Of a stretch of DNA of 64,000 bases, positions 115-29,576 are shown in pieces. The notes beneath the pieces were generated by a model that saw only the letters and a program-made list of their open reading frames with translations, was not told the origin of the DNA and made no database searches. This stretch comes from a virus: positions 1 through 64,000 of the IMG/VR virus record IMGVR_UViG_3300008259_000017; one strand, 5' to 3'. The position numbers and the translations under genes are program-made. The stretch's first letter is position 1; the number at the start of each line of letters is the position of its first letter.

Positions 115-2903
115 ATTCAGCAACCAGATCTGATGTATTTAATGAATATGCCAAAATAATTTCAAATTATAATAAAAAACATGGAATCAATAAAGCAGCA
201 ACACCAGTGCCAAAATTGATTATGCCTGGTGAAGCAGCAGGGACTGTGGCAGAAGGCGTAGACGAAGCCATTAAAGTAATTAAACAATTAGAGCCAGCGC
301 TCCAACCAAATGAGGCTTTTAAAATAATTGAAAACAATAAATCATTTTTTGATTTTACGGCAATAACTGGCAAGAGTGATGCTAGTATTGAAGATTTCAG
401 AAGTGCCAAACAGATTTTGGAAAAAGACCTTTATAAGGCTCCTAATGGAAAATTTACAATAAGAGCCAAACATAACAACGTGCCAAATGAACTAGTAACT
501 GATCTAGACATAATTACTTCTGGAAGAGATGCTATGCTCAAAGAAAAAAAAATTAACCCAGAAAAAGTAAGAAAATTTTATAAACAACTTACGGAAAAAG
601 GTATGCCTTCAGAGGAATTCCTTACCGAAGAAGCAAAAAATGTACTTAAAAAGATTGAGCCAGAAGAGGCTGCCAAAGTTACAGATAGGGAAGTTGCTTC
701 GGGTTCAAATCCTCCTGCTGAAAATCCTACAGCAACAGTTCAGGGTGAAGCACCTGCAAAAATAGTGGAGCCAGCCGTACCTACAGCACAACCACCTAAC
801 CAAAAACTAAATAGTCTTTTGGATGGAAATCTTGAATTAACACAGTTTAAGGCTGGTGGAGATATTCATAAATTACTAGATGATGACCAAAAAACTGCAG
901 TAAATGAAGTGCTAGAAGCTGCAGGAAAAGCGGACGTAAATACTTATAAAAAAAGTGTAATAAACATTAAAGATCCAAAACTAAGATCAAAACTTGATGA
1001 ACTAATTAAAAAAGAAAATCCAAATTTTGGTGCTAAACTAAAAGATAGTACAGTTAGAGCAGTGGAAGCAGCAAAGGAGCAAGCTGAAAATGCAGCAGTT
1101 AAGCTAGAGCAAGAAGAACCAGCATTGAAGGGAGCACCCACTGTAGGAGTGCCTGCTGGAGAAACATTAGCAACGCCAGGTCAAGCAGAAAGAGTAGTTA
1201 GAAAGCTTGATAATTTTAAATTTACTAGTCAATCTTTAAGTGCAGTCGCAACAAATATTAATAATCAAGCTTTGGCATCACTTAAAGCTCAGGTTAATAA
1301 TATTTCGACAAAACTTGAAGCTCTTTCAGCAAAGCCACCTCAGGAAATAACTGGAGAAATTAATAATGCCTTAGCTCCAATAATAGCAGATCTAAAAAAT
1401 CTTAAAGCTTCATTAGATACAACACAAGCAAGTCCACAGGCAGTTGTGGAAAGTGCAGCAAAAGCACAAGGTATTTTTTCAAAAGTAAAAGATATGCTCA
1501 GTGAAAGATTTGTAAATTATTTTAGAGCAAACCCAGAAAAATCAAAAGAAATAAAAGCATTAACAGAAAAGTTAGCTGAAGCTGAAAAAAGAGCGAAATT
1601 GATATCAGAAAGCGCCTCAAAGGCAGGCGAGGCTGCAAAGGCTGCAAAGGCCGCAGAAGTGGCAACAAACCCAGCCCAAAGAGAAGCATCAGAAGTCCTA
1701 TCCAAAGGCCTTTTATCTTCAGCTTTAATAACCATAGTAAAAGTCGGGCTACCTATTGCAGCCCTTGCCGGAATTTATTATATGATGACTGGTGAGGAAA
1801 TGCCAGAGGAGATTTCAGAGGGAATTGTTGTTCCACCAGAGGTTGGAGATCTTAATCCATCTGTAAATCCTATAAATCCAAATAATGTATCAGAAATAGG
1901 CAGTGCACTATCAACCCCAGATGGAAGAGCCTCAATTCAAAATCAATTAAATGATTTGCTAACTTCAAATCCAAATGCTTACAATAAATTATTAAGCTCT
2001 GTGGCAAAATTAAAAAATGCTACAGATGGATATAAATTAGAGAGACCAATAAGAATTGGTGGAGAAAGAATTGAATACGTTTATCCAAGGCAGGCAGCAG
2101 GATCTAGAAATCCTCTTGATCCAGGTAGGGCAAAGGCTACAGAAGAGTATATGTATAAGCTATTGGAAAATAACGGAAGAAAAGCCTTAAATATAAAGGG
2201 AAGAATTTTAACTGATGCAAATTCTAAAGATCCATTAGATATTGCAAGTTATATGTTTTCAACAATTGCAAATAAAGGATTGTTTAAGGGCTTAGCAACA
2301 GGCAGAGCAGGAAGATACGGAAGAGGTGCAGGCATTGGAGAAAACGAAAATAAAGGTTTCTCAGGATCACAAGAGGAAAGAATGACCAGGAAAGAAAGAA
2401 GAGCATTAAGAGGTATAAGTAGAGATCAGTTTGATCAAACAGAATCTGAGACTCCAATGGATTCTTTTGCATCTGGTTATAATGAATTATTTGAAAAATA
2501 TTCAAATGATTTAGATAATTCTATTAATAATTCTGAAATAATGAAGAAAGCTGATAAAACTTCTAAAAGATATTTTAAAGATGCCGTAAAGGATCTTTCA
2601 TCTGATAGTTTTATGAGCGATTATTATGCAGGGTTTTCAAAACTGTATGATAGCAAGGTTAAAAAGAGAAAATCAGACTACAACAAACTATATGATGTCC
2701 AAGAAGAAACTGGCTCAGATAGAATTCATAAAGCACATCCTGAAGCTATAGTAGTTGCGGATGCAATAGGAAATGGTGGTTTGGTTGAAAATGCATCAGA
2801 ATCAAGCAAGGCAATGCAAGAAGTAGCATCAAGAATGCCTACAGGAAATTACAGAGCCAGATATGCTTTTATTCAAAATGCTTTAAAGAAAGCAAGTTCA
2901 TAA
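105..2903 (+). CDS. 932-aa head-associated protein (internal head/scaffold-like), with coiled-coil segments and one predicted TM helix
   Basis: Long ORF with GGAGG RBS, directly upstream of the capsid genes; Ala/Glu/Lys-rich helical sequence; hydrophobic LLSSALITIVKVGLPIAALAGIYYMM at ~1710-1790. Function inferred from position only. Confidence 0.5.
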   Translation: MRINSATRSDVFNEYAKIISNYNKKHGINKAATPVPKLIMPGEAAGTVAEGVDEAIKVIKQLEPALQPNEAFKIIENNKSFFDFTAITGKSDASIEDFRSAKQILEKDLYKAPNGKFTIRAKHNNVPNELVTDLDIITSGRDAMLKEKKINPEKVRKFYKQLTEKGMPSEEFLTEEAKNVLKKIEPEEAAKVTDREVASGSNPPAENPTATVQGEAPAKIVEPAVPTAQPPNQKLNSLLDGNLELTQFKAGGDIHKLLDDDQKTAVNEVLEAAGKADVNTYKKSVINIKDPKLRSKLDELIKKENPNFGAKLKDSTVRAVEAAKEQAENAAVKLEQEEPALKGAPTVGVPAGETLATPGQAERVVRKLDNFKFTSQSLSAVATNINNQALASLKAQVNNISTKLEALSAKPPQEITGEINNALAPIIADLKNLKASLDTTQASPQAVVESAAKAQGIFSKVKDMLSERFVNYFRANPEKSKEIKALTEKLAEAEKRAKLISESASKAGEAAKAAKAAEVATNPAQREASEVLSKGLLSSALITIVKVGLPIAALAGIYYMMTGEEMPEEISEGIVVPPEVGDLNPSVNPINPNNVSEIGSALSTPDGRASIQNQLNDLLTSNPNAYNKLLSSVAKLKNATDGYKLERPIRIGGERIEYVYPRQAAGSRNPLDPGRAKATEEYMYKLLENNGRKALNIKGRILTDANSKDPLDIASYMFSTIANKGLFKGLATGRAGRYGRGAGIGENENKGFSGSQEERMTRKERRALRGISRDQFDQTESETPMDSFASGYNELFEKYSNDLDNSINNSEIMKKADKTSKRYFKDAVKDLSSDSFMSDYYAGFSKLYDSKVKKRKSDYNKLYDVQEETGSDRIHKAHPEAIVVADAIGNGGLVENASESSKAMQEVASRMPTGNYRARYAFIQNALKKASS

Positions 2904-2935
2904 TTTAAAAACAATTTAATTAAGGAGATTTAAAC

Positions 2936-3589
2936 ATGGCATTAAAACTATTACAGCCAGGTCTACAGCCAGCCGGACAGTTCGATCTAAAGGATCCAAC
3001 TCCAGGTTCATCATCACAGACAATTTACGGTGGTGAGTATGTTCAGCTAGCAGCCGCATCAGATTATGCAGCATATGACGTAACTCAGTCTATGTCACCA
3101 GCATTCTATATGGAGCCAAGCATTAGAAATTTGGCAGCATCAGTAAGGTTTGGCGGACTAGCAGATGACGGTGTTTCAGGATACGGTACTTCATTTGGTA
3201 CCTTAATTGGCGCAACCGTAGGCCAGGGAACTGGATTTGGAACTCTAAGCACCACAGGTGTTGTAGTAATTGGTCCACAGACAACTACTGGCTCAGGAAA
3301 AGTTACAGTATGGCACGCACCAGGTCTATATGGTGTATCTGGAAAGCCAGCAACAGATGCAGCAGTAGCGCCTCTAAGTGGTCTGGCAGCAAACTTTAAC
3401 GTAGAGTCAGAGGCAGCAACAGGTTATCTAGGCGGAACAGGAACTGGAGCAGGAGCAACCGTTGGTGTAACCGTTGGAGCAGTAAAAGATCAGTCAATGG
3501 TCTCAACTTCAACATTTGCAGCAACTGGTACAGCTTCAACTGAATTCTATGCAATCTACATGACTGCAATCAACGGCCTAAGCGTCTAA
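2936..3589 (+). CDS. Putative capsid decoration/cement protein
   Basis: AAGGAG RBS; Gly/Ala/Thr-rich 217 aa directly before the major capsid gene; shares its high-expression codon bias. Confidence 0.65.
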   Translation: MALKLLQPGLQPAGQFDLKDPTPGSSSQTIYGGEYVQLAAASDYAAYDVTQSMSPAFYMEPSIRNLAASVRFGGLADDGVSGYGTSFGTLIGATVGQGTGFGTLSTTGVVVIGPQTTTGSGKVTVWHAPGLYGVSGKPATDAAVAPLSGLAANFNVESEAATGYLGGTGTGAGATVGVTVGAVKDQSMVSTSTFAATGTASTEFYAIYMTAINGLSV

Positions 3590-3614
3590 TCAAATAAGGA
3601 CAAGGAGATTTAAA

Positions 3615-4649
3615 ATGTCAAATATATTCAATTCAAACGGCGAAGTAAACGCCTCCTCAGTTCAGGACGCATTATCAGCTATCGTAAAATACGCAAGTAT
3701 CATCGAAGATCTACAGCCATCTTCAAATGCACAGGCAATGTCAGCTTCTCTAACCGATGGTCAGAGAGATGACATGATCAAGCAGGCACTTCTAACCTCA
3801 GAAGGTAAGATTGCTCTAGGTCAGGCAATGGCTAACCCAATCCGTAGAAACTTGGACTACCAAGGTGTTGCTAGAAAGGCATTCGTAGTAGATCCTCTAC
3901 CACAGGGTTCACTAGCAATCTACGACAGAGATATCGACGTTTCAGCAGTCGTTATTTCTTCAAACGGTACAGCACCAGAGTCAAGAGTCTTTGGCGACAG
4001 AGTAACAGTTCCAGAGTTTGAAATTGTTTCAAATCCAACTGTAAGAATCTCTGAAGTTCAGAGAAGAAGATTCAACGTAATTGACCGTGCTCAGCAGAAG
4101 GCAAGAATGGAAATTCAGGCACAGGAAGACGGTAACGCCTTTACTGCCCTAGAGTTTGCTGGCGATTCAACAAAGGGTGGCGAGAACACTCTAGTTGCTC
4201 TAGATTCACCAGGTCCTTCAGGCTCACCAGCAGCACCAGGAAGTCTAACCAAGTCTGGTATGCTAGGCCTAAAGAAGCAGATTGATCGTTGGGACTTGGT
4301 AACCTCCAAGTACTTCCTAAACATCAATCAGTTTACTGATATTCTAGATTGGGAGTCAGCAGGTGCCGCAGGTGCTTCATCAGTAGATCCAGTAACTCAG
4401 AGAGAGCTACTACAGACCGGTCTATATGGTCACATCTTTGGTGCAGACATCATCGTAAGCAAGGTTGTTCCAGTAAACAAGGCATTTGCTTGCGCAGATC
4501 CTGAGTTTGTAGGCGTAATGCCAATCAGACAGGACATCGAAGTTCTACCAGCAGATGAGCCAAAGCAGCTAAAGCTAGGTTGGGTAATCAGCGAGATCAT
4601 CGGTATCGCAGTTGTAAACCCAAGAGGCGTTGCAGCAGGTGATATGTAA
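3615..4649 (+). CDS. Major capsid protein (HK97 fold)
   Basis: 344 aa; MANPIRRNLDYQGVARK, PEFEIVSNPTV, backbone helix RRFNVIDRAQQKARMEIQAQED, GHIFGADIIVS, C-terminal IGIAVVNPRGV; strong codon bias, AAGGAG RBS, terminator downstream. Confidence 0.9.
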   Translation: MSNIFNSNGEVNASSVQDALSAIVKYASIIEDLQPSSNAQAMSASLTDGQRDDMIKQALLTSEGKIALGQAMANPIRRNLDYQGVARKAFVVDPLPQGSLAIYDRDIDVSAVVISSNGTAPESRVFGDRVTVPEFEIVSNPTVRISEVQRRRFNVIDRAQQKARMEIQAQEDGNAFTALEFAGDSTKGGENTLVALDSPGPSGSPAAPGSLTKSGMLGLKKQIDRWDLVTSKYFLNINQFTDILDWESAGAAGASSVDPVTQRELLQTGLYGHIFGADIIVSKVVPVNKAFACADPEFVGVMPIRQDIEVLPADEPKQLKLGWVISEIIGIAVVNPRGVAAGDM

Positions 4650-4670
4650 AATCTTACTAACGTAAGTTAA

Positions 4671-4705
4671 AAAAGGGCGACAGTAAAATGTCGCCCTTTT
4701 TATTT
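4671..4705 (+). terminator. Rho-independent terminator after the capsid operon
   Basis: AAAAGGGCGACA-GTAAAA-TGTCGCCCTTTT followed by TATTT. Confidence 0.9.
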
Positions 4706-4712
4706 GCTAATA
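4705..4712 (+). promoter_or_regulatory. Putative late promoter motif TGCTAATA
   Basis: Matches the recurrent T(A/G)CTAAT(A/T) motif; sits just after a terminator and ~27 nt before the next ATG. Confidence 0.5.
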
Positions 4713-4738
4713 AATTTTCACCTTACATAGGTGATACA

Positions 4739-5248
4739 ATGAATTACAATAGATTAAGAGAAAGACAAACAGCAATCAAAGCAACTCCACTACCAAATAG
4801 GGCAGTATCTGGGATCTTAAATAGAAGGCAGCTTCCTAAAAATGATTTAAATATGGAAGATCCCGTCGATAGAGCTTATCCAAATTTTTTTGAATTTGAA
4901 GAAGACTTGTCAAAAATTAAATCTTCTGCAGAATTATTTGAAGAAATTGAAAAAAAGAATTTAGAAAAAGAAACTACAGAGTTAATTGCATTAGAGCCTT
5001 TAAATAATATTATTAACTATAATCATGTAACAAATAATACTAATAATATTTCAGAAGATGTAGACACGACAGATTCTTTGGAAGAATTTTACCAACCAGA
5101 ATCTGAGCCAACTATAATGGAAGAGTTGGAGGAAATACAGAGTTATGAAGCGCAATTTATTCAGTGTGAATTTATAAAACAAAATGGTGAAAGATGCAAG
5201 AGGCAGGCACCAAAAAATCATAAATTATGTTCTAAGCATAAAATTTAA
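4739..5248 (+). CDS. Acidic protein with C-terminal C3H zinc finger
   Basis: C-terminal CEFIKQNGERCKRQAPKNHKLCSKH; start moved from 4688 (inside the terminator) to ATG 4739, which has an AGGTGA RBS. Confidence 0.7.
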   Translation: MNYNRLRERQTAIKATPLPNRAVSGILNRRQLPKNDLNMEDPVDRAYPNFFEFEEDLSKIKSSAELFEEIEKKNLEKETTELIALEPLNNIINYNHVTNNTNNISEDVDTTDSLEEFYQPESEPTIMEELEEIQSYEAQFIQCEFIKQNGERCKRQAPKNHKLCSKHKI

Positions 5249-5351
5249 CATTAGTTTATTTTTTTGAAACAAAAAATAATAATTTACTTTTTTAAAGATC
5301 AAACGACATAATAAATGTATATACTAAATTTTTTCAATTAAGGCGAATATC

Positions 5352-5573
5352 ATGAATACATTTAAAACATCAGACTTATCACTATCAGCCTACCTTTCAA
5401 TGATGGGTCTTAAAATTATAAAGGCAGAGAAAGACTCAAATAATAAATTTTTATTTGAGTTTGACGATCCAGATGGATTGGCAAAAGATTATTCTATTAG
5501 TTTTTTAAAAAGTGATTTTATAAAATACGACAATAGCTTAAGAAATCTTAAACGAATGTTGTATATTAAATAA
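5352..5573 (+). CDS. Small DUF5659-like protein
   Basis: FKTSDLSLSAYL..G.KI.......FLFEF pattern recalled as DUF5659-like; AAGG RBS; TACTAAAT motif at 5322. Confidence 0.6.
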   Translation: MNTFKTSDLSLSAYLSMMGLKIIKAEKDSNNKFLFEFDDPDGLAKDYSISFLKSDFIKYDNSLRNLKRMLYIK

Positions 5574-5628
5574 ATTATAAGTTTAAAGTTATACGTTAAG
5601 GAATCAAACTAAATAGGAGTAATTATAA

Positions 5629-8322
5629 ATGGCAAGATCATTTACAACCAAAATCGCTGGCGATCAGATTATTCTAGAGAATAACTCTAATCTGAGCACA
5701 CAGGATGGTGGTCTATCAGTAAGCGCAACCGGTGGTCTAAAAGTAGACTTCGCAGTTGTAGCACACAAGTCAACAGTAAACCAGAACCTAGCAGACGAAA
5801 TCGTAGCAAGAACCTCAGCAGTTCTAGCCGAAGAGAATGCAAGAATCGCTGGTGATTCAGTACTAACCTCAAATCTAGCAGTAGAAATTTCAGCAAGAGC
5901 TTCAGCAGTTCTAGCAGAAGAGACCGCAAGAATTGCAGGTGATTCAGTATTAACCTCAAATCTAAACGTAGAAATCTCAGCAAGAGCATCAGCTGTTCTA
6001 GCAGAAGAGAACGCAAGAATTGCAGGCGATTCAGTACTAACTTCAAATCTAGCAGTAGAAGTATCAACAAGAGCATCAGCAGTTGCAGCCGAAGAAGCAG
6101 CAAGAATCGCTGGTGATTCAGTACTAACTTCAAACCTAGCAGTAGAAGTAGCCGCAAGATCAACCGCAGTTGCAGCAGAAGAGTCAGCAAGAATTGCTGG
6201 TGATTCAGTTCTAACTTCAAATCTAGCAGTAGAAGTTTCCGCAAGAGCTTCAGCTGTACTAGCAGAAGAGAATGCAAGAATTGCAGGTGACTCAGTTCTA
6301 ACCTCAAATCTAGCAGTCGAAGTAGCAGCAAGATCAACCGCAGTTGCAGCAGAAGAGTCAGCAAGAATTGCCGGTGACTCAGTATTAACTTCAAACCTAG
6401 CAGTTGAAGTTTCTGCAAGAGCATCAGCAGTACTAGCAGAAGAGACTGCAAGAATTGCAGCAGACTCAGTGCTAACTTCAGATCTAGCAGTAGAAGTCTC
6501 AGCAAGAGCATCAGCTGTTGCCGCAGAGTCAACAGCAAGATCAGCTGCAGATTCAGCACTAGCTTCAGATCTAGCAGTAGAAGTTGCTGCAAGATCAACA
6601 GCAGTAGCTGCAGAGCAGTCATCAAGAATCGCTGCAGATTCAGTATTAACTTCAGACCTAGCAGTCGAAGTTTCAGCAAGAATCTCAGACGTTGGTGCAC
6701 TAGATCTAAGAATCGACAGAGTTGAAGCAGGTCTAACCAAGGGCGTACAGTTCAAGGCTGCTATTAGCGGTGCTGACGAGTCAGCAGTTCTATCAGCAAT
6801 CAAGAGCGCAATCGAGGCAGATCCAACTCACGTTGAGACAATCACAGCTGGCGTTCTAACCATTCTAGATCCAGTAACCAACGCAGGCGTAAGCCCAGTA
6901 GGTTGGGCTTACTACGATGAGACTGGCGCAGACACCTACGTACTAGTAGAAGGTGCAGCAGATGCAGCACTAGGCAAGCTAGCACTACCAGGCATCACAA
7001 GCCACTCAGTAGTAAAGTTTGCTAACTACAAGGAACTAGCAGATTATGCAACAGCAGCAGTTTCAGTTGCTCAGTCAACTCTAACTTCTTCACTAAATGC
7101 AGAAATCTCAGCAAGAATCTCAGTAGTTGCAGTAGAAGAAGCAGCAAGAATTGCAGCAGACTCAGTTCTAACTTCAGACCTAGCAGTCGAAGTTTCAACA
7201 AGAGCTTCAGCAATTGCAGCAGAATCAACAGCAAGATCAGCAGCAGACTCAGCTCTAGCTTCAGATCTAGCAGTTGAAGTATCTACAAGAGCTTCAGCAA
7301 TCGCAGCAGAATCAACCGCAAGATCAGCAGCAGACTCAGCTCTGGCATCTGACCTAGCAGTAGAAGTAGCAGCAAGATCAACAGCAGTAGCAGCTGAGCA
7401 GTCAGCAAGAATTGCAGCAGATTCTGTTCTAACTTCAGATCTAGCAGCAGAAGTTCTAGCAAGATCTACAGCAATGGCAGCAGAGGAGTCAGCAAGAATT
7501 GCTGGTGATTCAGTTCTAACTTCAGGTCTAAACGCAGAAATCTCCGCAAGAATTTCTGTAATGGCAATCGAAGAAGCAGCTAGAATCGCAGCAGATTCAA
7601 CTCTAACTGCAAACCTAAATGCAGAGATTTCAGCAAGAACATCAGCAGTTGCAGCAGAACAGTCAGCAAGAATTGCAGCAGACTCAGTACTAACTTCAAG
7701 CCTAGCAGCTGAAGCTTCAATGAGATTCGCAGCAGATCTATTCGAAGAGACCGCAAGAATTGCAGCAGATTCAACTCTAACTGCAAACCTAGCAGCAGAA
7801 GCTTCAATGAGATTTGCAGCAGATCTATTCGAAGAGACAGCAAGAATTGCAGCAGACTCAACTCTAACTGCAAATCTAGCAGCAGAAGCTTCAATGAGAG
7901 CAGCAGCAGACACAGCACTTGGCTCAAACGGAACAATGAGAGTATTCTCAGGCTCCTTTACAGCAACTGATGCGCTAAAGCTACTAGCATTTGAAGTAGG
8001 TGCAGGCAAGACTCTACTAAACGGATTCAACCTAGAGCATGTAATTGATCCAATCGTAGTAAACAGCAAGGTTCCAGTAAGCTTTGAACTATATGTCAAC
8101 GGCCTACTACTAGCCCCAATGTACGATGGAGCAAACTTCAAGGTATTCGGAACAGCAGATGTAGATGCAGGCGATGCAACAAAGATCGACGGTACCAAGT
8201 TCCTAACAGGTGATTACGCATTCTACAGAAATGTAACTGGACCACAGTTCAGAATTGCATTCAAGTTTGCACTACTATCAACTGACGTAGTAACAATCAA
8301 GTACAACAAGCTTCACTACTAA
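5629..8322 (+). CDS. 897-aa Ala/Ser-rich coiled-coil fibre protein with 29-aa repeats
   Basis: Two repeat blocks (consensus NLAVEVSARASAVAAEESARIAADSVLTS) separated by a ~120-aa globular segment; beta-type C-terminal domain (FELYVNGLLL...GDY...DVVTIKY); AGGAG RBS, capsid-like codon bias, own terminator. Confidence 0.8.
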   Translation: MARSFTTKIAGDQIILENNSNLSTQDGGLSVSATGGLKVDFAVVAHKSTVNQNLADEIVARTSAVLAEENARIAGDSVLTSNLAVEISARASAVLAEETARIAGDSVLTSNLNVEISARASAVLAEENARIAGDSVLTSNLAVEVSTRASAVAAEEAARIAGDSVLTSNLAVEVAARSTAVAAEESARIAGDSVLTSNLAVEVSARASAVLAEENARIAGDSVLTSNLAVEVAARSTAVAAEESARIAGDSVLTSNLAVEVSARASAVLAEETARIAADSVLTSDLAVEVSARASAVAAESTARSAADSALASDLAVEVAARSTAVAAEQSSRIAADSVLTSDLAVEVSARISDVGALDLRIDRVEAGLTKGVQFKAAISGADESAVLSAIKSAIEADPTHVETITAGVLTILDPVTNAGVSPVGWAYYDETGADTYVLVEGAADAALGKLALPGITSHSVVKFANYKELADYATAAVSVAQSTLTSSLNAEISARISVVAVEEAARIAADSVLTSDLAVEVSTRASAIAAESTARSAADSALASDLAVEVSTRASAIAAESTARSAADSALASDLAVEVAARSTAVAAEQSARIAADSVLTSDLAAEVLARSTAMAAEESARIAGDSVLTSGLNAEISARISVMAIEEAARIAADSTLTANLNAEISARTSAVAAEQSARIAADSVLTSSLAAEASMRFAADLFEETARIAADSTLTANLAAEASMRFAADLFEETARIAADSTLTANLAAEASMRAAADTALGSNGTMRVFSGSFTATDALKLLAFEVGAGKTLLNGFNLEHVIDPIVVNSKVPVSFELYVNGLLLAPMYDGANFKVFGTADVDAGDATKIDGTKFLTGDYAFYRNVTGPQFRIAFKFALLSTDVVTIKYNKLHY
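5785..6684 (+). repeat. Coding tandem repeat, 87-bp unit, ~10 full copies plus a partial
   Basis: Recurrent gcaagaattgcaggtgattcagtactaacttcaaatctagcagtagaa every 87 bp, with synonymous variation. Confidence 0.95.
7090..7920 (+). repeat. Coding tandem repeat, 87-bp unit, ~9 full copies plus a partial
   Basis: Second block of the same 29-aa repeat; final copies switch to EASMRFAADLFEETAR. Confidence 0.95.
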
Positions 8323-8340
8323 TTAACTTAGTATAAGCTA

Positions 8341-8370
8341 AGGGTGGCAGGCAACTGCCACCCTTTTTTG
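8341..8370 (+). terminator. Rho-independent terminator after the fibre gene
   Basis: AGGGTGGCAG-GCAA-CTGCCACCCT (GNRA loop) followed by a T run. Confidence 0.92.
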
Positions 8371-8412
8371 TTTTTATTTTTAGCATAAAGTAAAATACTG
8401 TAGAGGTTGTAT

Positions 8413-8742
8413 ATGAGCAAAGATTCAAAAGTTAAAAGTTTAATTTCAAAGATAGAGACTTCAAAGATTGAGGCAGTAAAAGCACAGGCCTACTCTGAAG
8501 GATATTTTGATTGTATCAGTGATTTTATGGAAGGAAGGTTAGAGGAAATTACAAAGGTATTTGATGCAAAATATGATGGCTCAATTAGATTGCAAGTATA
8601 TAGTGAAATTCTTCCAACTCTAAAAGATATAGATGCATCAGAATCTGCTAAGCAAGAGCAGGCACCGCAAACACCACCTATTGATCCTAATCACCCATCA
8701 GTTAGGGCCAAGGAGTTTATGGCAAGACTAGAGGGCAGGTAA
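8413..8742 (+). CDS. Hypothetical protein
   Basis: AGAGG RBS favours ATG 8413 over TTG 8407; TAAAAT -10-like element at ~8391. Confidence 0.7.
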   Translation: MSKDSKVKSLISKIETSKIEAVKAQAYSEGYFDCISDFMEGRLEEITKVFDAKYDGSIRLQVYSEILPTLKDIDASESAKQEQAPQTPPIDPNHPSVRAKEFMARLEGR

Positions 8743-9044
8743 TGCCTGTTTTTACAAAATCAGTGAAAATACTTTCAGAGGAAAGGGCGGCTATTGATGG
8801 AGCCTCTCATTATTCTGATATTCTTAATCAATACGAAGGAATATATAATAGTGAAAAAGACACCGAAAGCTTTCAAGATTTATTAAGATTAAGAAAATGG
8901 ATTGCTTTATATGTAAAATGGGCAGAAAAATGGCACATGGAAAATATGAAGCCTGGTGATGATATGTTTGTAAATAAAGAGGATTTTATGGGATATCCTC
9001 CAAGACCCACTGCCCCTAGAAAAAATCCATTTGAACCATTATAA
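8742..9044 (+). CDS. Hypothetical protein
   Basis: TAATG stop/start coupling with the upstream gene; ends at a terminator. Confidence 0.7.
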   Translation: MPVFTKSVKILSEERAAIDGASHYSDILNQYEGIYNSEKDTESFQDLLRLRKWIALYVKWAEKWHMENMKPGDDMFVNKEDFMGYPPRPTAPRKNPFEPL

Positions 9045-9070
9045 AAAAGCGCCCAGTTGGGCGCTTTTTT
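9043..9070. terminator. Bidirectional terminator between convergent genes
   Basis: AAAAAAGCGCCCA-GT-TGGGCGCTTTTTT with A and T runs on either side. Confidence 0.92.
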
Positions 9071-9071
9071 A

Positions 9072-10142
9072 TTATATTGATTTTATTAAATCTTTATACA
9101 TCTTCTGAACAGCTGGATTTTTAATTGAAAATTTCCAAAGGACTTCTTTTGCAGCATGTAATGATTTTTGAGACATATGATCATTTGTTTCAATTGCTTG
9201 TTTTAATTTTTCTTTTCCAATGTTGACATTAAACTTTGGATAAAAATAACCAGCTTCTTTGCAAAACTCACTATTATGAACAATTGGATAATTTAAATAT
9301 AAAGATTCCAAAGTTACATAATTTAGATCATTATAAAAATGGTTAGAAACTATTACTCCAAATTTCTTTTGATCAAGTAATTTTATTAAAGAATATCTTA
9401 ATTCTGGTTTTAATTTTTTTGCTTTAAATAAATCTGTATTTTCAATCATTTTTTTAAAATTCAAATCTGTTTCTAAATGTTTTGATCCATATAAATACAT
9501 TGTCTCTATTAAAGAGTTATCCTCTCTTTCTAAAGCTTCTGCTATGTAAAGAGGGGTAATATAATTCTTTGAAATACTTATGTTTGGCTCAAGGCAAGCC
9601 ACATTCTTTTTGTTTGTTATATTGGAAAATTTTTCATTTATTTTATATTCTGGTTTTATACTTCCATCAATAAACCAAGGCTCCCAAATATAAGGAAGTA
9701 TTTTTACTTTTGCCTTGCTTGTAGCCTCGACAAATGATTTATAAAATTCATAATGTGGAGATATCCATGTTTCAACACCTTCTCTATGTATTCCAACTCC
9801 AGAGTCTGGATTGTGTAGCATTCCCTCTATTAAATAGAATAAAGAATTTCCATAATTTATAGATACAACTTTTATATTTTTTTCTATACATATATTTACT
9901 ATGCTTGTTTCTATCATGTATGCTGCTTCAAGGATTAAGAAATATTTATCTACAGAATCAGCAGTTAGTTTTTCTTGCTTCATATCCATAAAATATGTAT
10001 TATCTTCTTCTGCTCTTGTTAATGCAACAACATCATAGCCCATATTTTTTAATAGTTTAATTAAAAAATAACAATTTTGATTTAATCCATTTGACCATAT
10101 TTTGCTAGAGTCATTTGTTGTTATTCCAATTTTTTTTATCAT
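9072..10142 (-). CDS. DUF2827-like protein (putative GT-B glycosyltransferase)
   Basis: KIGIT...IWSNGLNQNCYFL, WISPH, PYIWEP, LEPNISISK, NDLNYVTLESLYLNYPIVHNS..AGYFY motifs recalled as DUF2827. Confidence 0.8.
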   Translation of the reverse strand: MIKKIGITTNDSSKIWSNGLNQNCYFLIKLLKNMGYDVVALTRAEEDNTYFMDMKQEKLTADSVDKYFLILEAAYMIETSIVNICIEKNIKVVSINYGNSLFYLIEGMLHNPDSGVGIHREGVETWISPHYEFYKSFVEATSKAKVKILPYIWEPWFIDGSIKPEYKINEKFSNITNKKNVACLEPNISISKNYITPLYIAEALEREDNSLIETMYLYGSKHLETDLNFKKMIENTDLFKAKKLKPELRYSLIKLLDQKKFGVIVSNHFYNDLNYVTLESLYLNYPIVHNSEFCKEAGYFYPKFNVNIGKEKLKQAIETNDHMSQKSLHAAKEVLWKFSIKNPAVQKMYKDLIKSI

Positions 10143-11206
10143 TTTATTAATTCCTTAATTAAATTTTCAATTCTTTCTTGATTACTTTTATTGTCAGTAG
10201 AATGGCTCTCAATTTTATTTAAATATTTATTTTTATGATCATTGTAATCAAAATTTAATATAGCTTTTTTTAATTGTTTTGCACCTTCAATTGCGTCAAA
10301 GTCATTATAAAAATAACCAACATCTTTAAAAGACATGCTATTATGAACTAATGGTCTTTTGTAGAATAACAACTCTAAATAATAATAATTATTTTCATTA
10401 CATACTTGATGAGCAATAAAAGTGTTTAAAACATCATTTGAAAGAATAACATGTAAAGGTATTCTTTTGTGTGCAAATACTTTTTTATTTTTCACTATAT
10501 CAAGCTTATCATAAAAACTTTTAAACATTTTATTCTCTAGTTTTTTATCTATAGATCCAATGTAAACTCTTTCTACAAGCTCTGGATTGGTATAGTTTAA
10601 GCCTTCCGCTATTCCAATTGGAACAATTGAAGTCTTGTAAAAGTTATAATTAGAATCAATTGTTCCAATTTTCTTTAACTGCTCTTTTGATTTTAAGTCA
10701 CAATTTTTATAAAAATCTTTATCATTTTTTATTAGAAAATCTGGATCCCATAAAAAAGGAATTGTATCTACATCAGTTCTGGTCATCGTAGATATTAAGC
10801 TTGAAAATTCCTCATGAGCTTCTTGTATCCAAATATTACAAGAATTTGAAAAATTTGATTTTGATAAAGAAGTATTTAATTCTTTATTATTTACAGCCTC
10901 AAATTGATTCATCATCATATTGTGATGAATATTTAAAACTATTTTTTTTCCTTTTGATGATATCTGATTGAAAATTTCATCTTGATTTATCTTGCTGCAG
11001 TTTATAAAAAAATCATAATTTTTTATTTTTGAAAAGTTTAAGTTTTTGGTCTCTTCTTCAAAAAATTCAATTTTTCTATAAAAAGAGACTATATCAACAT
11101 CATGCTTTAATTTTTTCAATATTTTGTTTAAAAAGTAAGCATTTTGATCTGCGCCATCAACCCATGGCTGAGTTATGTTATCGCATATTATTCCTATTTT
11201 TGACAT
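10139..11206 (-). CDS. Second, more divergent DUF2827-like protein
   Basis: KIGII...WVDGADQNAYFL, PFLWDP, NNYYYLELLFYKRPLVHNS..VGYFY; colinear paralog of the adjacent gene; ATGA overlap; GAGG RBS. Confidence 0.75.
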   Translation of the reverse strand: MSKIGIICDNITQPWVDGADQNAYFLNKILKKLKHDVDIVSFYRKIEFFEEETKNLNFSKIKNYDFFINCSKINQDEIFNQISSKGKKIVLNIHHNMMMNQFEAVNNKELNTSLSKSNFSNSCNIWIQEAHEEFSSLISTMTRTDVDTIPFLWDPDFLIKNDKDFYKNCDLKSKEQLKKIGTIDSNYNFYKTSIVPIGIAEGLNYTNPELVERVYIGSIDKKLENKMFKSFYDKLDIVKNKKVFAHKRIPLHVILSNDVLNTFIAHQVCNENNYYYLELLFYKRPLVHNSMSFKDVGYFYNDFDAIEGAKQLKKAILNFDYNDHKNKYLNKIESHSTDNKSNQERIENLIKELIK

Positions 11207-11227
11207 TTTAAAACCTCATATTAATAT

Positions 11228-11235
11228 TATTAGTA
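11228..11235 (-). promoter_or_regulatory. Putative late promoter motif TACTAATA driving the DUF2827 pair
   Basis: + strand TATTAGTA reads TACTAATA on the - strand, ~22 nt upstream of the 11206 start; identical to the motif before the sheath gene. Confidence 0.55.
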
Positions 11236-11268
11236 ATATTAATTACTATAATATAGGAAATTAATAAA

Positions 11269-11535
11269 GTGGCAACAATTAATATTACTACAGGACAAGT
11301 TACCCAAGAATATATTAAAGAAGATCTTTCTAATTCTTTGGTCTCTGGAGTTCAAACATATAATACAGCTTATAAATTTAAACAATCCACACTAGAAGTT
11401 CATTATAATGGACTCTTATTAAGAGAATTGCATGAATATGTGGAAAATTCAAATAGAACTTCATTTACTTTTTTGCCCGAAATAAACTTTGTGTTAAATG
11501 ATAACAGTTTAATTATCAAATATGTAAGAGGATAG
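11269..11535 (+). CDS. Small beta-domain virion protein
   Basis: GTG start; LEVHYNGLLL...EY.E...FTF...LIIKY resembles the C-terminal domain of the 897-aa fibre. Confidence 0.6.
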   Translation: MATINITTGQVTQEYIKEDLSNSLVSGVQTYNTAYKFKQSTLEVHYNGLLLRELHEYVENSNRTSFTFLPEINFVLNDNSLIIKYVRG

Positions 11536-11544
11536 GAGGATTTA

Positions 11545-11880
11545 ATGGCACTAGGAAGTTATTTTTTGGGAGCAAAAGTTAGAATTCCAATAAATGTCAC
11601 CGTTGATGGAACTCCTTTGCTTGGGGTTATTCCAGTTATAGAAAGAATTATACTGCCAAACGGAGCAATAGAAACTGGATTTCCAAAAACTATGATAGCA
11701 ACTCATCAAAATTCTTCTATATATTATTTGGATTATACACCAAAAACAATAGGAGACTATATTGTAATATCTAAAATTACATATATGGGAAAAGATTATA
11801 ATACAATTGAAAATTTTACTGTAAACGATAGTGTACTAAAAGTTGTATCTAAAACACCACCAAGATCAGTAGCGAGTTAA
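11545..11880 (+). CDS. Ig-like small virion protein
   Basis: AGGAGG RBS; IYYLDYTPKTIGDYIV is an Ig-like E/F-strand pattern. Confidence 0.6.
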   Translation: MALGSYFLGAKVRIPINVTVDGTPLLGVIPVIERIILPNGAIETGFPKTMIATHQNSSIYYLDYTPKTIGDYIVISKITYMGKDYNTIENFTVNDSVLKVVSKTPPRSVAS

Positions 11881-11885
11881 TAACA

Positions 11886-12797
11886 ATGGCAAATGCACGA
11901 GGAAGAGCAGTAATAGGTCAAGTTGTTGATTTGACTGTAACATTTTATGGATTTGATGGAGCTCCAACAAATACCGATAATTTTCCAACTATACAGATTG
12001 CAGACCAGAATGGCGCAATATTAGTTACAACGACTTCTGCAGGAATTACAAATACGTCAGATGGCGTATATAAGTATTCTTACATGGTTCCATCACAATC
12101 ATCAATTGGCATGTGGAAAGACACATGGGATGCATCAATTGACGGATCTAGAGTTTTAAATGAATTTACATTTTTAGTTGTAAATGAAGCAAGCTCAGTT
12201 CCCATTGGAGAAGTAAAGCTAGGAGATGAGGTGCTATTCGATTTTAGCCAGCAAGAATTGGAAGGTATCAATGTGCTGCTAAAGTATTTAAAAGCTAGAC
12301 TTCGCTCTGACGGCAAAAAACCAAAGAGAGATAAGTTTGGAGCATTTGTTTATGATTCATATGGCGAACTTGTTACCGAGGATTGCAACGTATTCACCGA
12401 TGAAATTTTAGTATGCTTTTTGTGCCAATCCTTATCCGAATTCAATTCTACCCCGTTCTTTACATCCTATCTTTTTTCCGACCAGATAATTTATAAAACC
12501 TTTGCCAATATAATCGTAGAGGGAGCTTACGTTGTGGCATTAGCATCACAAGCATTGGTAGAAAAGGGTAGGGACTTTACCATAAGTGACGGCGGTATCT
12601 CCTACCAGCCACCAGCCCTTGGAGATTTTTTGCAAAGCCACTATCAAAATTGGTTGACAACCTACCGCGATAGGCTTAAGTTTATTAAGGCTTCCATTCG
12701 CCCTGGTCCTGTATCGTTCGGAACCTACACAAACCTTGGAAGTAACAATCCTGCCTTCACGAGGCTGAGGCACATGCGTTCAAGAAGAATTATATAA
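11886..12797 (+). CDS. Putative head-tail adaptor with N-terminal Ig-like domain
   Basis: N-terminal GVYKYSY.VP...GMWKDTW Ig pattern; C-terminal helical domain with FTDEIL...QSLSEFN..P and DFTISDGGISY, typical of adaptor proteins; position between head and tail genes. Confidence 0.65.
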   Translation: MANARGRAVIGQVVDLTVTFYGFDGAPTNTDNFPTIQIADQNGAILVTTTSAGITNTSDGVYKYSYMVPSQSSIGMWKDTWDASIDGSRVLNEFTFLVVNEASSVPIGEVKLGDEVLFDFSQQELEGINVLLKYLKARLRSDGKKPKRDKFGAFVYDSYGELVTEDCNVFTDEILVCFLCQSLSEFNSTPFFTSYLFSDQIIYKTFANIIVEGAYVVALASQALVEKGRDFTISDGGISYQPPALGDFLQSHYQNWLTTYRDRLKFIKASIRPGPVSFGTYTNLGSNNPAFTRLRHMRSRRII

Positions 12798-12873
12798 GTT
12801 CTTGATGGAATAGTATAGTATAAGATTGAGGAGTTTTGTACTGTGCTAAGTAGAATAAAAATGGAAGGTTTAA

Positions 12874-13383
12874 ATGTTTTTAAAGGTAGCCAAGAAAAGC
12901 AAAATTGAAGAGAAGCAAAAGTTATTTGCAGAAATAAGAAAGCATATGAAGAATTCTGATATTGCAAAAGAATGTCTAAAGGAAAAAAAGATAGGATCAT
13001 GGATATTTGATGCATTTCCGCTTGACTTTGATGACATTGATGTAACTGCAAAAACAGTAAATGGAACAATATATTTGAATCCTAAAGTTTTAAAAATGGA
13101 TTTTAAAATAGTAATGAGATATGTAATTCATGAGTTTGTTCATGTGTTACAGCATATTAATGAGGAAAAAAAAGGCGATAAGAAAAGCGATAAAAATCAA
13201 GACTATTTAGATAGAGAGGACGAAATTGAAGCTTTTCAGAAGCAAATAAAATTTGATGCAAAAGTAAGAGGGCCGGAGGCTGCAGAAAAATATGTTGATG
13301 AGCTTCTTGAGTTTCATGAGATTGACAATAAAAAAGAAAAGAAAAAGAAAAAAACCTTGTTATTAGGAGAAGTTGTTGATTAA
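12874..13383 (+). CDS. HExxH zincin-like metallopeptidase
   Basis: IYLNP...YVIHEFVHVLQH...YLDREDEIEAF (HExxH plus downstream ExEA). Confidence 0.7.
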   Translation: MFLKVAKKSKIEEKQKLFAEIRKHMKNSDIAKECLKEKKIGSWIFDAFPLDFDDIDVTAKTVNGTIYLNPKVLKMDFKIVMRYVIHEFVHVLQHINEEKKGDKKSDKNQDYLDREDEIEAFQKQIKFDAKVRGPEAAEKYVDELLEFHEIDNKKEKKKKKTLLLGEVVD

Positions 13384-15444: not shown

Positions 15445-15712
15445 AAATACAAATAAAAAAGAAGATGCAATGTTAACCTTTGCAACAATTTCTTTTGCAG
15501 TTACAACAATTTGCTTTATTCTATCAATTATAAGTGTAATATCTCTTGGAGATTTTAAACTTGAATTAAAATCAGTTGACTCGGGACTAATGTCAGTTTA
15601 TCTTGGAGCGACCTTTTCAGCATATGTAGCTAGAAGATGGACAGATAAAAGATACCAACCTTCTATAGACGCAGAGGATAAAACCGAAGAGGTAGAAGTT
15701 GCGCCTAAATAA
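15428..15712 (+). CDS. Holin-like membrane protein (2 TM helices)
   Basis: GTG start with AAGGAGG RBS; two hydrophobic segments followed by RRW and a charged tail. Confidence 0.5.
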   Translation: MSFWVKNTNKKEDAMLTFATISFAVTTICFILSIISVISLGDFKLELKSVDSGLMSVYLGATFSAYVARRWTDKRYQPSIDAEDKTEEVEVAPK

Positions 15713-16028
15713 GTTTTATGTAAAAAAATGGATTAAAAAAAATAAATCACTTATTACATTATTGTTTTTTATAGCTCTAATACCAATGGTCGCTATTATA
15801 GCATTTGGTAATAAAGATAATGTTTTATTTAAAAAAATAGTGAAACTTATAGACGAAGAAGAAAAAAAGTTTATTAATTTATCAAAAGAAGAGACTGAGG
15901 AAACAAAATCTGAGATTAAAGATTTAGAATCAGAAGTAGAAAAAACAAAAGAAAAAATTAAAGAAATAGAGAATACAAAAAGTAAAAAAGAGGATCTAGA
16001 TTCATTTTTTGATGAGAGGCTGAAATGA
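15699..16028 (+). CDS. i-spanin-like protein (N-terminal TM plus coiled coil)
   Basis: Basic N-terminus, LITLLFFIALIPMVAIIAFG helix, Glu/Lys coiled coil; overlaps the holin-like gene. Confidence 0.45.
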   Translation: MRLNKFYVKKWIKKNKSLITLLFFIALIPMVAIIAFGNKDNVLFKKIVKLIDEEEKKFINLSKEETEETKSEIKDLESEVEKTKEKIKEIENTKSKKEDLDSFFDERLK

Positions 16029-16228
16029 TTGATATTTTGAAAAAATTTGCACAAGAGTTAAAACCAGAAAATCAAGCAGTATTCAATAAGAGTATTGATG
16101 AATTTAATAAAGGTCTTGAAAACAAAAAATATATGGTTATAGATATAAAAAAAATGGAATCTATGTTTGACCAGGAAAAGGTAGAAGAAGTTGAGCCTTT
16201 AGAGCCTTTTGTTATGGATCTAAAATGA
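16025..16228 (+). CDS. Hypothetical protein
   Basis: ATGA-coupled at both ends; GAGG RBS. Confidence 0.65.
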   Translation: MIDILKKFAQELKPENQAVFNKSIDEFNKGLENKKYMVIDIKKMESMFDQEKVEEVEPLEPFVMDLK

Positions 16229-16629
16229 TAAAAGCACTATTCTTAGGCGCAATATTTGCAGGTGATATTATGCCTGCAAAAACTGTTTTACAATCAGAGT
16301 CTTATGTTCTTTCCATAGAAGAGGCGGAAAAGCTTAAAGCAAAAATTGAAGATTTAGAAAAAAAAGAAAAACTTTTATCCGAATATATCAATCTTGAAAA
16401 TTTAAGAGAAAAGCAAGTATCTGGCTATAAACAGGTTGTAGAATTCCAAGATTTGCAAATTGAAAAGTATAATATAGTAATAAGCTCTAAAGATAAGCAA
16501 ATAAAAACATTGCTTAAAAGAAGCGATAATAGTTTTTTAAAAAATGCAATATTATTTAGTTCTGGAGCTTTATTAACTGCAGGATCAATTTATGCAGCAG
16601 ATAAATTGGACGATTCTATTGAAAAATAA
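16225..16629 (+). CDS. Membrane-associated coiled-coil protein (possible second spanin component)
   Basis: Short hydrophobic N-terminus, central coiled coil, C-terminal Gly/Ala hydrophobic helix AILFSSGALLTAGSIYA; no lipobox Cys. Confidence 0.4.
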   Translation: MIKALFLGAIFAGDIMPAKTVLQSESYVLSIEEAEKLKAKIEDLEKKEKLLSEYINLENLREKQVSGYKQVVEFQDLQIEKYNIVISSKDKQIKTLLKRSDNSFLKNAILFSSGALLTAGSIYAADKLDDSIEK

Positions 16630-16641
16630 ATAGAGGAAATA

Positions 16642-26330: not shown

Positions 26331-26366
26331 ATAATAAAATTATTGTAAAGCATATCGGAGGATTTG

Positions 26367-29300: not shown

Positions 29301-29576
29301 ATAGTCTTTATTAGAGATAGAGTAAAGCAGGTACTAAGAAATTCACTAAAATCATTTATTGGTGGAGTTCAGGGTCCAGATACTCTAAGTCTAATGTCAG
29401 CAAAAGTAAAGACAATTATGACAGGTCTTTCATCACAGGGTCTAATAACATCATTTTCTAATATCAGAGTTGCAAGAGATAAGGTCGATCCAAGACAGCT
29501 AAATGTATTCTTACAGTTCGTACCAGCATACCCAATCAACTTCGTATTTATTGACATTGAAATCGGAATAGCATAA
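26367..29576 (+). CDS. Contractile tail sheath protein (enlarged)
   Basis: N-terminal GYIQPGAF; HCETMS...KERVAIIG, AVAGL, GRTT...EEISIVFIRD, C-terminal DPRQLNVFLQFVPAYPINFVFI; GGAGG spacing favours ATG 26367 over TTG 26364. Confidence 0.93.
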   Translation: MANIPGISGYIQPGAFARDRVISKAASIPGGLRVAAIMGEGMREEVIVESAVGGGEDGVASCSPSGSGESRYFKLSRFPVVSGRTELYLNGTKLFGKEEVVDESVLSSEYDYRLDIETGCIELQKATIKDQNGKVYSASGTNVGNGIIPDSQSDACQTVDIVDSSAPTERWTLKCVSVVRDSSGSPIPGRATFSVTGSSSGQVYDDAGSPIFFHSTYFTSSSGAVSGNADPSVDGYVVASSDGYGLASPIADGGATPTTTNTVTIPADLVSDGQALVGDYLVLDDGTYGQISSISYDSGSSETTIVVSTDSLGSVGDTVDWKIRAVNAFVDQTMGGSFTGLDLGKILVVCPAGNFAGGKFLITKVTSNTTVRVEKYGEPGVVYPSQEATDTAVGLAYEDLTFYMVETNGIIQAGIQEGAISFEVGDRLFIDVSSRAMGPGDRLVANYIYEADLNDPELFTDAESLFAKHGFPSVENTLSLGAQIAFENGAPAILAVQCKPSIPRRTSATLLSQISAAGVGGFTGCLSSGGVADDSLCGLEDLRFIIPTPTTGLLKGRPAQDTRVNIFIKRSGVETQIFPNKVDFYNSQLETDAQQLAFISGDENPYSYTIVNSDTNTLFTGEDGVLTTGIAGTTFSSLFINLDRDHVGSTIVIESMEDALTGTVYTSVADISEQLYGVGLGVTETAEVVIDSITSDTKAVVIGAESNTLTVSDKFVNIQFFIKGENTSNVSASLLLHKDLVKSGTLKKGDGIRITYIDENDSNFYDTNWFTAFEKLEAVDAQIIVPLPSSTISAIFQSAVTHCETMSSIANRKERVAIIGAQSGLSTDAILGLKDVAVEDIGIIEGIQGDDPLELLSGDVEDLADYKLSNSYDSSRAVYLYPDSIVRNVSGTNVQLHGFYMATAVAGLLSANQNVSIPITNKSLTGFSLTRDKVYRPVILDKLGGEGATVVQPIPGGGRILAGRTTSQSGIVEEEEISIVFIRDRVKQVLRNSLKSFIGGVQGPDTLSLMSAKVKTIMTGLSSQGLITSFSNIRVARDKVDPRQLNVFLQFVPAYPINFVFIDIEIGIA

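Follow-up and report, generated by a model that had tools for sequence, protein, structure and literature searches.

What do two overlapping antisense genes of the DUF2827 family do in the structural module of a tailed phage, beside the gene for a long repeat fibre? The question is raised by a 64,000-nt stretch of viral DNA (the window), which is the first 64 kb of the 72.9-kb IMG/VR record IMGVR_UViG_3300008259_000017 (CheckV completeness 22%). Our preferred answer, to which we give an even chance, is that the pair glycosylates the adjoining fibre. A wider proposal, which we put forward tentatively and with more doubt than confidence, is that DUF2827 could be a new family of protein-fibre glycosyltransferases found in phages, giant viruses and bacteria, and that virions of the window clade might carry hundreds of glycosylated head fibres.

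The two DUF2827 genes lie on the minus strand and overlap by 4 nt (ATGA). The first gene of this operon (10139..11206) encodes a protein of 355 amino acids (aa) that matches Pfam family PF10933 with 153.9 bits (E 6.9e-45, profile positions 10-356 of 362), and the second (9072..10142) one of 356 aa with 201.8 bits (E 2e-59, positions 4-361 of 362), the curated cut-off being 25 bits. The products are 25% identical to each other. The first-pass annotation of this DNA had described overlapping DUF2827-like paralogs, and had called them the only two credible minus-strand genes in the 64 kb; both descriptions stand. There are 15 minus-strand open reading frames (ORFs) of at least 100 aa, and the pair are the only ones with family matches; the 13 others are antisense frames, four inside the fibre repeats and nine (100-145 aa) inside plus-strand genes.

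An AlphaFold2 model of the downstream paralog, built on a 33-sequence alignment, is confident (predicted local distance difference test score, pLDDT, 90.0; predicted template modelling score, pTM, 0.89), and Foldseek gave at least 500 PDB matches to it at E ≤ 0.001, led by GT4-type retaining enzymes. With such a model and so many matches we regard the GT-B fold, which the glycosyltransferase likeness noted at first had called for checking, as established for this paralog. In the model the predicted two Rossmann-like domains of DUF2827 superpose on solved GT-B enzymes. At the sequence level DUF2827 appears to stand apart from the GT4/Glycos_transf_1 proteins: Pfam at E ≤ 0.01 gave DUF2827 only for the pair, with no Glycos_transf_1 match (PF00534/PF13692), hhalign of the DUF2827 alignment (A1) against the phage's own PF00534 protein gave a probability of 0.3%, and the A1 profile had no match among PDB sequences at E ≤ 10. 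GT4-type enzymes have an E-x7-E motif in their C-terminal domain, and in DUF2827 the stretch N271-x7-E279 precedes P-x-x-H-N-S.

The family comprises 1,448 representatives at 50% identity (E ≤ 0.001). None was found in 50,697 GenBank phage records, and a literature search by name returned no phage paper on DUF2827. The best BFVD match of the model is an uncharacterised protein of a cultured virus, Pyramimonas orientalis virus 01B (A0A7L9AXF5; template modelling score 0.88, 23% identity). DUF2827 also occurs as a single gene, followed by a gene for 1,443-1,680 aa, in GVMAG giant-virus contigs (L049, L069, L071 and L074). In bacteria, 327 DUF2827 genes adjoin trimeric autotransporter adhesins, often in 2-3 successive copies, and glycosylation of the adhesins by DUF2827 has been proposed for Burkholderia, Veillonellales and Pasteurellales, according to the accessible part of a preprint (bioRxiv 10.64898/2026.01.22.700529). 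As described there, these loci share the Pfam family with the window pair. They differ in their neighbour, which is a secreted adhesin in bacteria and, in the window, a phage fibre without detectable similarity to such adhesins; in either setting the glycosylation of the neighbour is a proposal. Our scan of bacterial contigs with alignment A3 gave 108 pattern matches, none of them encoding a DUF2827 relative, so for the bacterial association the preprint is our sole source.

Domain fusions give a first indication of function. Fifteen of the 24 long DUF2827 proteins carry further glycosyltransferase domains (GT2, GT32-type DXD, GT25, GT11, GT31, Fringe, GT41 and PLOD-GT), two carry methyltransferases and seven nothing further, and these fusions point to a probable role in glycan assembly. 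GT41, Fringe and PLOD-GT are protein-modifying families. The acceptor could nevertheless be something other than a protein, for the best structural matches listed are BshA, MshA, PimA, WaaG and TarM, GT25 is an LPS-type fusion partner, a pyruvyl transferase domain is found among the neighbours, and a near-complete relative (G001) has six further GT4-type matches in two clusters elsewhere in its genome. The pair might then remodel a polysaccharide, lipid or small molecule, as in superinfection exclusion or with a BshA/MshA-like acceptor. We think this unlikely, since the position of the pair is conserved inside virion modules and beside fibres, the fusions include the protein-glycosylating GT41, PLOD-GT and Fringe, and neither membrane segments nor flippase genes were seen beside the pair in the window.

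A third kind of acceptor, the phage DNA itself, is disfavoured and in our view most improbable. Glycosylation against restriction in the style of the T4 alpha- and beta-glucosyltransferases would agree with a 'DNA alpha-glucosyltransferase' at rank 17 of the BFVD matches, and DNA hypermodification by multiple glycosyltransferases has been published (Pyle et al., 2024, as cited in the accessible part of PMC12619734). Against this, a Thymidylat_synt-family (hydroxymethylase-type) gene was found in none of three related records, including both of those at least 90% complete (94% and 100%), in a search whose positive control was detected in 10 of 14 genomes; the pair is placed among structural and not among replication genes, and the bacterial homologues, as far as the preprint describes them, adjoin adhesins. 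A Tet_JBP search gave no match, and its positive controls were likewise without a match.

The neighbour of the pair is a plus-strand gene of 897 aa (5629..8322) that matches phrog_30948 and phrog_21070, both of unknown function. It contains two arrays of an 87-nt (29-aa) repeat detected by Tandem Repeats Finder, one of 10.1 copies with 81% matches (5805..6681) and the other of 9.1 copies with 77% matches (7099..7894). The layout, common to eight relatives (alignment A2), consists of an N-terminal part of about 45 aa (MARSFTTKIAGDQ...), array 1, a central globular domain of about 120 aa, array 2 and a C-terminal part of about 135 aa; the N-terminus starts with MAR-x-F-x-TKI. The repeat shaft, the distinct terminal domains and the position in the structural module suggest that the product is a virion fibre. 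Positions D3, S4, L6, L10, E13 and R17 of the 29-mer are invariant in 18 of 18 units. The unit reads as an 18-mer plus 11 residues, and only E, R, D and L are invariant across 29-mer and 18-mer relatives. Since a 29-mer profile matches only the two closest relatives (L003 and L004), others using 18 or 36 residues, the 29-residue period is lineage-specific.

The fibre had been described at first as rich in serine, threonine and alanine. The last holds (22.9% alanine), but its serine plus threonine content of 19.0% is like that of the sheath (18.4%) and the baseplate J-like protein (19.9%). Relatives with 18- or 36-residue repeats have 25-31%, and the analogy with serine-rich adhesins drawn at the same time suits them better than the alanine-rich window fibre. 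Hydrophobic periods are 7.25, 4.83 and 4.14 residues in the window arrays and 4.5 in an 18-mer relative, and the power at period 3.62 is 61-70 versus 145-183 for the top peaks; with the strongest hydrophobic periods lying outside 3.5-3.67 residues, the data do not support a canonical alpha-helical coiled coil. The one similarity to a named protein, the deduced tail fibre of Xanthomonas phage OP1, is weak (30.5% over 221 aa, E 2e-5). No match was found among PDB sequences at E ≤ 1, the ESM Atlas model of the fibre is poor (pLDDT 0.41), and Atlas matches for the C-terminal domain score at most 0.86 and serve as leads only. A family of short fibres matches phrog_19577 'minor head protein' (E 2.1e-10) and has weak hhalign similarity to the long one (E 6.6e-4, probability 27%), the N-termini being aligned from residue 1. 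The antisense ORFs at 5664-6803, 5687-6700, 7071-8198 and 7580-7936 were rejected as genes, as they are low-complexity mirror frames of the repeats; reaching 379 aa, they could mislead gene callers.

The fibre appears to be abundant. Its relative synonymous codon usage (RSCU) correlates with that of the major capsid gene (3615..4649, plus strand; phrog_2522 major head protein, E 2e-69) at r 0.96, the highest of 28 genes compared, followed by a 217-aa gene (0.85) and the sheath gene (0.81), the remaining genes ranging from -0.01 to 0.59. The fibre value is inflated because the repeats make its codons non-independent, with the direction still clear. RNA-library contigs from four metatranscriptome runs of three studies cover 2900-4660 (the 217-aa and capsid genes) and 5532-8311 (the fibre); such contigs do not reveal relative expression levels, and DNA may be present in an RNA library. 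Two of them, from two studies, start at 5532 (X6) and 5537 (X4), just behind TATAAAAT at 5520-5527, which gives a weak hint of a fibre promoter or 5' end on the plus strand at 5520..5537. They end at 8270-8311, shortly upstream of an intrinsic-terminator-like hairpin on the plus strand (8340..8365; 11-pair stem with 7 G-C pairs, then the T-run TTTTTGTTTTT). Codon usage, RNA contigs and terminator fit a separate, strongly expressed fibre transcript. The first-pass annotation had claimed a high-copy 29-mer fibre with capsid-like codon bias and its own terminator, and the two arrays, the codon correlation, the RNA contigs and the hairpin agree with it on each count. Gene order together with these capsid-like expression signals suggests that the fibre sits on the head.

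An argument for a link between enzymes and fibre comes from their neighbourhood in other viruses. We clustered 1,403 neighbouring genes from 76 loci and counted over 48 dereplicated viral groups. The commonest companions of DUF2827 are a repeat-fibre family that includes the window fibre (c1) and multi-domain glycosyltransferases (c2) with GT25, GT32-type, GT34-type and pyruvyl transferase domains, whose genes overlap the pair in many viral loci. The fibre is present in the locus in 22 of the 48 groups (19 within 5 kb), c2 in 20, and one or the other in 32. It is c1 proteins that account for most of the strongest internal repeats found in any neighbour. Fibre and DUF2827 genes are linked in at least six different gene orders, among them capsid-DUF5659-fibre-two small genes-antisense pair (the window), sheath-pair-c2-fibre-J-domain-like gene, giant tail protein-pair-c2-fibre, and the pair directly followed by two fibres.

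Reverse searches gave the same picture. Twelve loci were found from the long fibre, eight on contigs that also hold the pair and four on short contigs ending in or just after the fibre gene. From the short-fibre family, the pair was found in 29 of 44 loci, or 29 of the 34 informative ones. The 15 short-fibre loci without it include 10 with less than 3 kb upstream; the other five comprise two in which the pair lies further off on the contig (13.6 and 17.4 kb), two with other glycan genes and one with none. The association between DUF2827 and repeat fibres, proposed at the outset as a check, is thus real in many viral lineages and in both search directions.

Several loci of this survey have features of their own. 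Beside short fibres without DUF2827, at L135:7326-15463 and L136:7185-9779, lie a WavE-like gene and a HAD-nucleotidyltransferase fusion, joined in L135 by GT4- and GT9-like genes; it looks as if other glycan enzymes have replaced DUF2827 beside the same kind of fibre. A gene for a protein of about 227 aa with a J-domain-like 'THPDK/THPDL' motif and no Pfam match (cluster c4; L025:15303-15986, L034:15904-16587, L048:6022-6663 and others) lies 3' of the fibre gene in 12 of the 48 groups and is absent from the window; its product may be a fibre-specific co-chaperone. Another locus, L056, combines a single DUF2827 gene with a 1,044-aa repeat fibre and three genes (2148-5399, 11182-11907 and 15649-17562) with long collagen-like or GTS-triplet repeats, in which serine plus threonine reach 41%.

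Other virion proteins, such as the capsid, the sheath, other fibres or the 217-aa protein mentioned above, could be the true acceptors, the fibre being a mere neighbour. In the largest other phage group the pair lies 17-30 nt 3' of the sheath gene and is overlapped by the next glycosyltransferase gene, an apparently operon-like structural placement. The 217-aa protein itself (2936..3589, plus strand) is Gly/Thr/Ala-rich and encoded directly 5' of the capsid gene, in the position of the decoration gene gp26 in the phage G gene order. It is as rich in serine and threonine as the fibre (21.2%), has capsid-like codon usage and RNA-library coverage, and showed no family match (Pfam, PHROG); it is a candidate decoration protein and a possible alternative acceptor. 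Phage enzymes that glycosylate capsid and tail-tube proteins have a precedent in mycobacteriophages, by the accessible part of PMC12619734. We nevertheless judge the neighbour scenario improbable: among the neighbours that are not enzymes, the fibre family is the most constant over the different gene orders, and the bacterial DUF2827 genes, in the portion of the preprint available, adjoin adhesins that are fibrous as well.

Why should there be two enzymes? At least two DUF2827 genes are present in 32 of the 48 groups, usually as an overlapping tandem. A tree of 80 representatives places first and second genes in separate clades within each major phage group (7 and 5 changes of the position labels versus about 25 in shuffles), and its topology implies at least two or three separate duplications. 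In the window the downstream paralog has all family motifs intact. The upstream one has, in the window clade, about ten near-invariant residues replaced, with the changes N18D, G98H, SPH128-130 to QEA, E185D, S266A, L273N, H320F and Y349I. Compared with the relative L003 (83-90% identical), the ratio of non-synonymous to synonymous substitution rates (dN/dS) is 0.124 for the upstream and 0.08 for the downstream paralog; at these values neither is decaying and both are under purifying selection. The fibre evolves faster (dN/dS 0.31).

The earlier annotation took one enzyme as catalytic and the other as degenerate, by analogy with GtfA/GtfB, the O-GlcNAc transferase complex of streptococcal serine-rich repeat adhesins, which comes with accessory Sec genes. 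In such an obligate heterodimer the downstream enzyme would be catalytic and the upstream one a non-catalytic, acceptor-binding chaperone. The 4-nt gene overlap suggests coupled translation, GtfA (PDB 4pqg) is among the fold matches listed (E 1.2e-7, rank 45), and the two systems share the GT-B fold, paired genes and a repeat-protein substrate (a candidate one in the window). The loss of near-invariant residues, SPH128-130 among them, speaks for this part of the claim. The upstream paralog, on the other hand, retains 15 of 15 family-invariant residues, as does its partner, including the N-x7-E stretch and the HNS motif; both paralogs of the largest phage group keep every conserved motif, and at least two or three separate duplications took place. 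The window pair also differs from GtfA/GtfB in lacking a DUF1975-type insertion, in having a partner that is not clearly degenerate and in a fibre that is not serine-rich, and no Sec-type genes were matched in the cassette (Pfam, PHROG, NCBIfam). A degenerate partner is unproven, and we see the obligate heterodimer as not very likely. Two enzymes with different acceptor steps would fit at least as well as an enzyme with a dead partner.

The 62-nt divergent intergenic region 5' of the pair (11207..11268) contains a perfect palindrome, ATATTAATAT (11218-11227), which abuts the ribosome-binding site of the pair, and TACTAATAATA on the minus strand (11225-11235). A palindrome search gave four hits, two of them this site read on both strands, and the window has no other site of the kind. 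The core of the palindrome, TATTAATAT, is conserved 5' of the pair in seven relatives (L003-L006 and L009-L011), the enzymes of which are only about 42% identical. The palindrome could serve as an operator or in the control of translation. The motif TACTAATA, which had been noted before both the pair and the sheath gene and linked with co-regulation, is indeed present in both places (22 nt 5' of the pair and 34 nt 5' of the sheath gene). However, it occurs at chance level (4 sites in the window versus 5.75 expected), as does the shared 11-mer TACTAATAATA (3 exact sites; 7 with one mismatch versus 5.9 expected), and so provides no evidence of co-regulation. The DUF2827 genes have codon usage correlations to the capsid gene of only 0.16 and 0.48. 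No contig of the four RNA runs covers 8912-12900, the pair and the following genes, which is uninformative on their expression.

We propose the following scheme. In it the catalytic activity of the enzymes is inferred, as are their sugar and acceptor, the sequence of their steps and the place of the fibre on the virion. A separately transcribed and highly expressed long repeat fibre, encoded between the capsid gene and the next structural genes, would consist of an N-terminal anchor, two 29-residue arrays round a central knob, and a C-terminal tip. The antisense two-gene operon would yield two paralogous cytoplasmic GT-B glycosyltransferases of the DUF2827 family, and in the infected cell, before virion assembly or while it proceeds, both would transfer sugars from nucleotide-sugar donors to the fibre, alone or along with other virion proteins. 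The two enzymes might act successively, like SdgB and then SdgA, or as a complex, and the virion would then carry glycosylated fibres.

A number of observations weigh against this scheme. The fold does not tell the acceptor, as the best matches include small-molecule, lipid, teichoic-acid and DNA glycosyltransferases. The serine plus threonine content of the window fibre (19%) is ordinary, and the hydroxyl positions of the repeat vary between 29-mer and 18-mer relatives. In this lineage the pair is read from the opposite strand, has ordinary codon usage and is preceded by a conserved element of its own, which tells against assuming co-expression with the fibre. Sixteen of the 48 groups have neither a fibre nor a multi-glycosyltransferase gene, several of these loci being cut by contig ends, and the surveyed loci are not phylogenetically independent, since the linkage may partly be conserved synteny within a few phage clades. 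Finally, further GT4-type genes in the clade (at record positions 68,999-70,081, and six in the near-complete relative) could serve another pathway.

Glycosylation of the fibre by the pair would have several parallels. The SdgB/SdgA enzymes of Staphylococcus aureus act on Ser-Asp dipeptide repeats, as stated in the accessible part of PMC3794999. They have no sequence-level relation to DUF2827, and the window fibre has 29-residue alanine-rich repeats instead; a structure from their system, 7vfm, is among the fold matches. Mycobacteriophage enzymes glycosylate the C-termini of capsid and tail-tube subunits (Freeman et al., 2023, as cited in the accessible part of PMC12619734). In that system, as far as it is described there, the targets are the phages' own structural proteins and the activity is bench-tested, whereas the window has a different enzyme family and a putative separate repeat-fibre target. 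Virus-encoded, cytoplasmic, multi-enzyme glycosylation of the virion surface is known from the capsid glycans of chloroviruses and the fibrils of mimivirus. Those viruses have eukaryotic hosts, and the enzymes and fibril proteins characterised in them are of other families; DUF2827 itself, as noted above, also occurs in giant-virus contigs. As for the fibre, phi29 gp8.5 is a head fibre, and phage 7-7-1 reportedly has head fibres too. They resemble the window fibre in having the gene right after the capsid gene and, if it does sit on the head, as abundant fibrous capsid appendages, which serve them for first host contact. No sequence similarity to them was found, and the head location of the window fibre is a prediction from gene order and expression. 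The window system resembles both adhesin glycosyltransferase pairs and viral self-glycosylation; neither sequence nor defining accessory features place it in any of these systems.

Virion self-glycosylation is established for eukaryotic giant viruses and reported, among phages, for a few mycobacteriophages. If the pair does modify the fibre, the result would be a glycan coat on a tailed phage, with a role in attachment, protease resistance or shielding. Gene order ties DUF2827 to fibres in dozens of lineages of uncultured aquatic phages. Should the link prove functional, enzyme and substrate are both named for a simple bench test. Phages would then have a further, widespread means of changing their surface, which would affect host recognition, stability and shielding from proteases or immunity, and a DUF adjoining virulence-associated adhesins in Burkholderia would gain a function. 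New here are the jumbo clade akin to phage G, in which the pair is antisense and has its own conserved upstream palindrome, the alanine-rich 29-mer fibre variant, the evidence for fibre expression, and the purifying selection on both paralogs.

The window derives from an uncultured freshwater phage, a jumbo myovirus of about 320 kb that is a distant relative of Bacillus phage G, because its capsid protein is phage G-like (49.2% identity to gp27 of the 497-kb phage G, E 2e-87) and 82% identical to that of a 316.7-kb, 94%-complete viral contig with the same cassette, and close DUF2827 homologues are held by contigs of 245-378 kb. The sheath gene (26364-29576, phrog_279) and baseplate genes lie downstream. 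In a tblastn comparison of 18 window proteins with the phage G locus the capsid protein was the sole match, and blastn of the region against phages gave none.

The rest of the cassette is made up of small genes. A DUF5659 gene (5352..5573, plus strand; Pfam PF18903, E 5.9e-10, 39.3 bits, cut-off 23.6) confirms the DUF5659-like gene of the first annotation, and its cluster (c31) is kept directly 5' of the fibre gene in L003, L005-L010 and L048; no paper with the term DUF5659 was found by name. The gap between fibre and pair holds two small conserved plus-strand ORFs of 111 and 100 aa (8407..9044; clusters c30 and c29), syntenic in L003-L010 and without a family match in Pfam (including permissive searches), PHROG or NCBIfam. 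Between these genes and the convergent DUF2827 pair lies a hairpin (9041..9072; 14-pair stem with 6 G-C pairs) with A-runs and T-runs flanking both sides, which could be a bidirectional terminator ending both convergent units. On the other side, the pair is flanked by a conserved 88-aa gene, identified as an ORF and by synteny (11269..11535, plus strand; cluster c23), whose product has only a 16-aa local similarity to the C-terminal domain of the fibre (E 0.006). Searches of the cassette with NCBIfam and of 4600-12000 with Rfam gave no match, and with permissive settings Pfam had no match with E below 0.02 for the small genes or the domains of the fibre. A PADLOC match to Cas1 (E 0.0043) was taken as chance.

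Further downstream, window positions 16642-55216 and L092:226-13982 hold a run of very large structural genes (1470, 1195, 1070, 1679, 813, 2611, 660, 1098, 3071 and 1494 aa), almost all without a Pfam or PHROG match. Beyond the window, a GT4-type gene (Glycos_transf_1, E 9e-13; L092:14000-15082, record positions 68,999-70,081) immediately follows two very large fibre-like genes, one of 3,071 aa that includes a Laminin_G_3/ConA-like domain and one of 1,494 aa. DNA near-identical to the region was found in runs labelled lake-water and estuary metagenomes.

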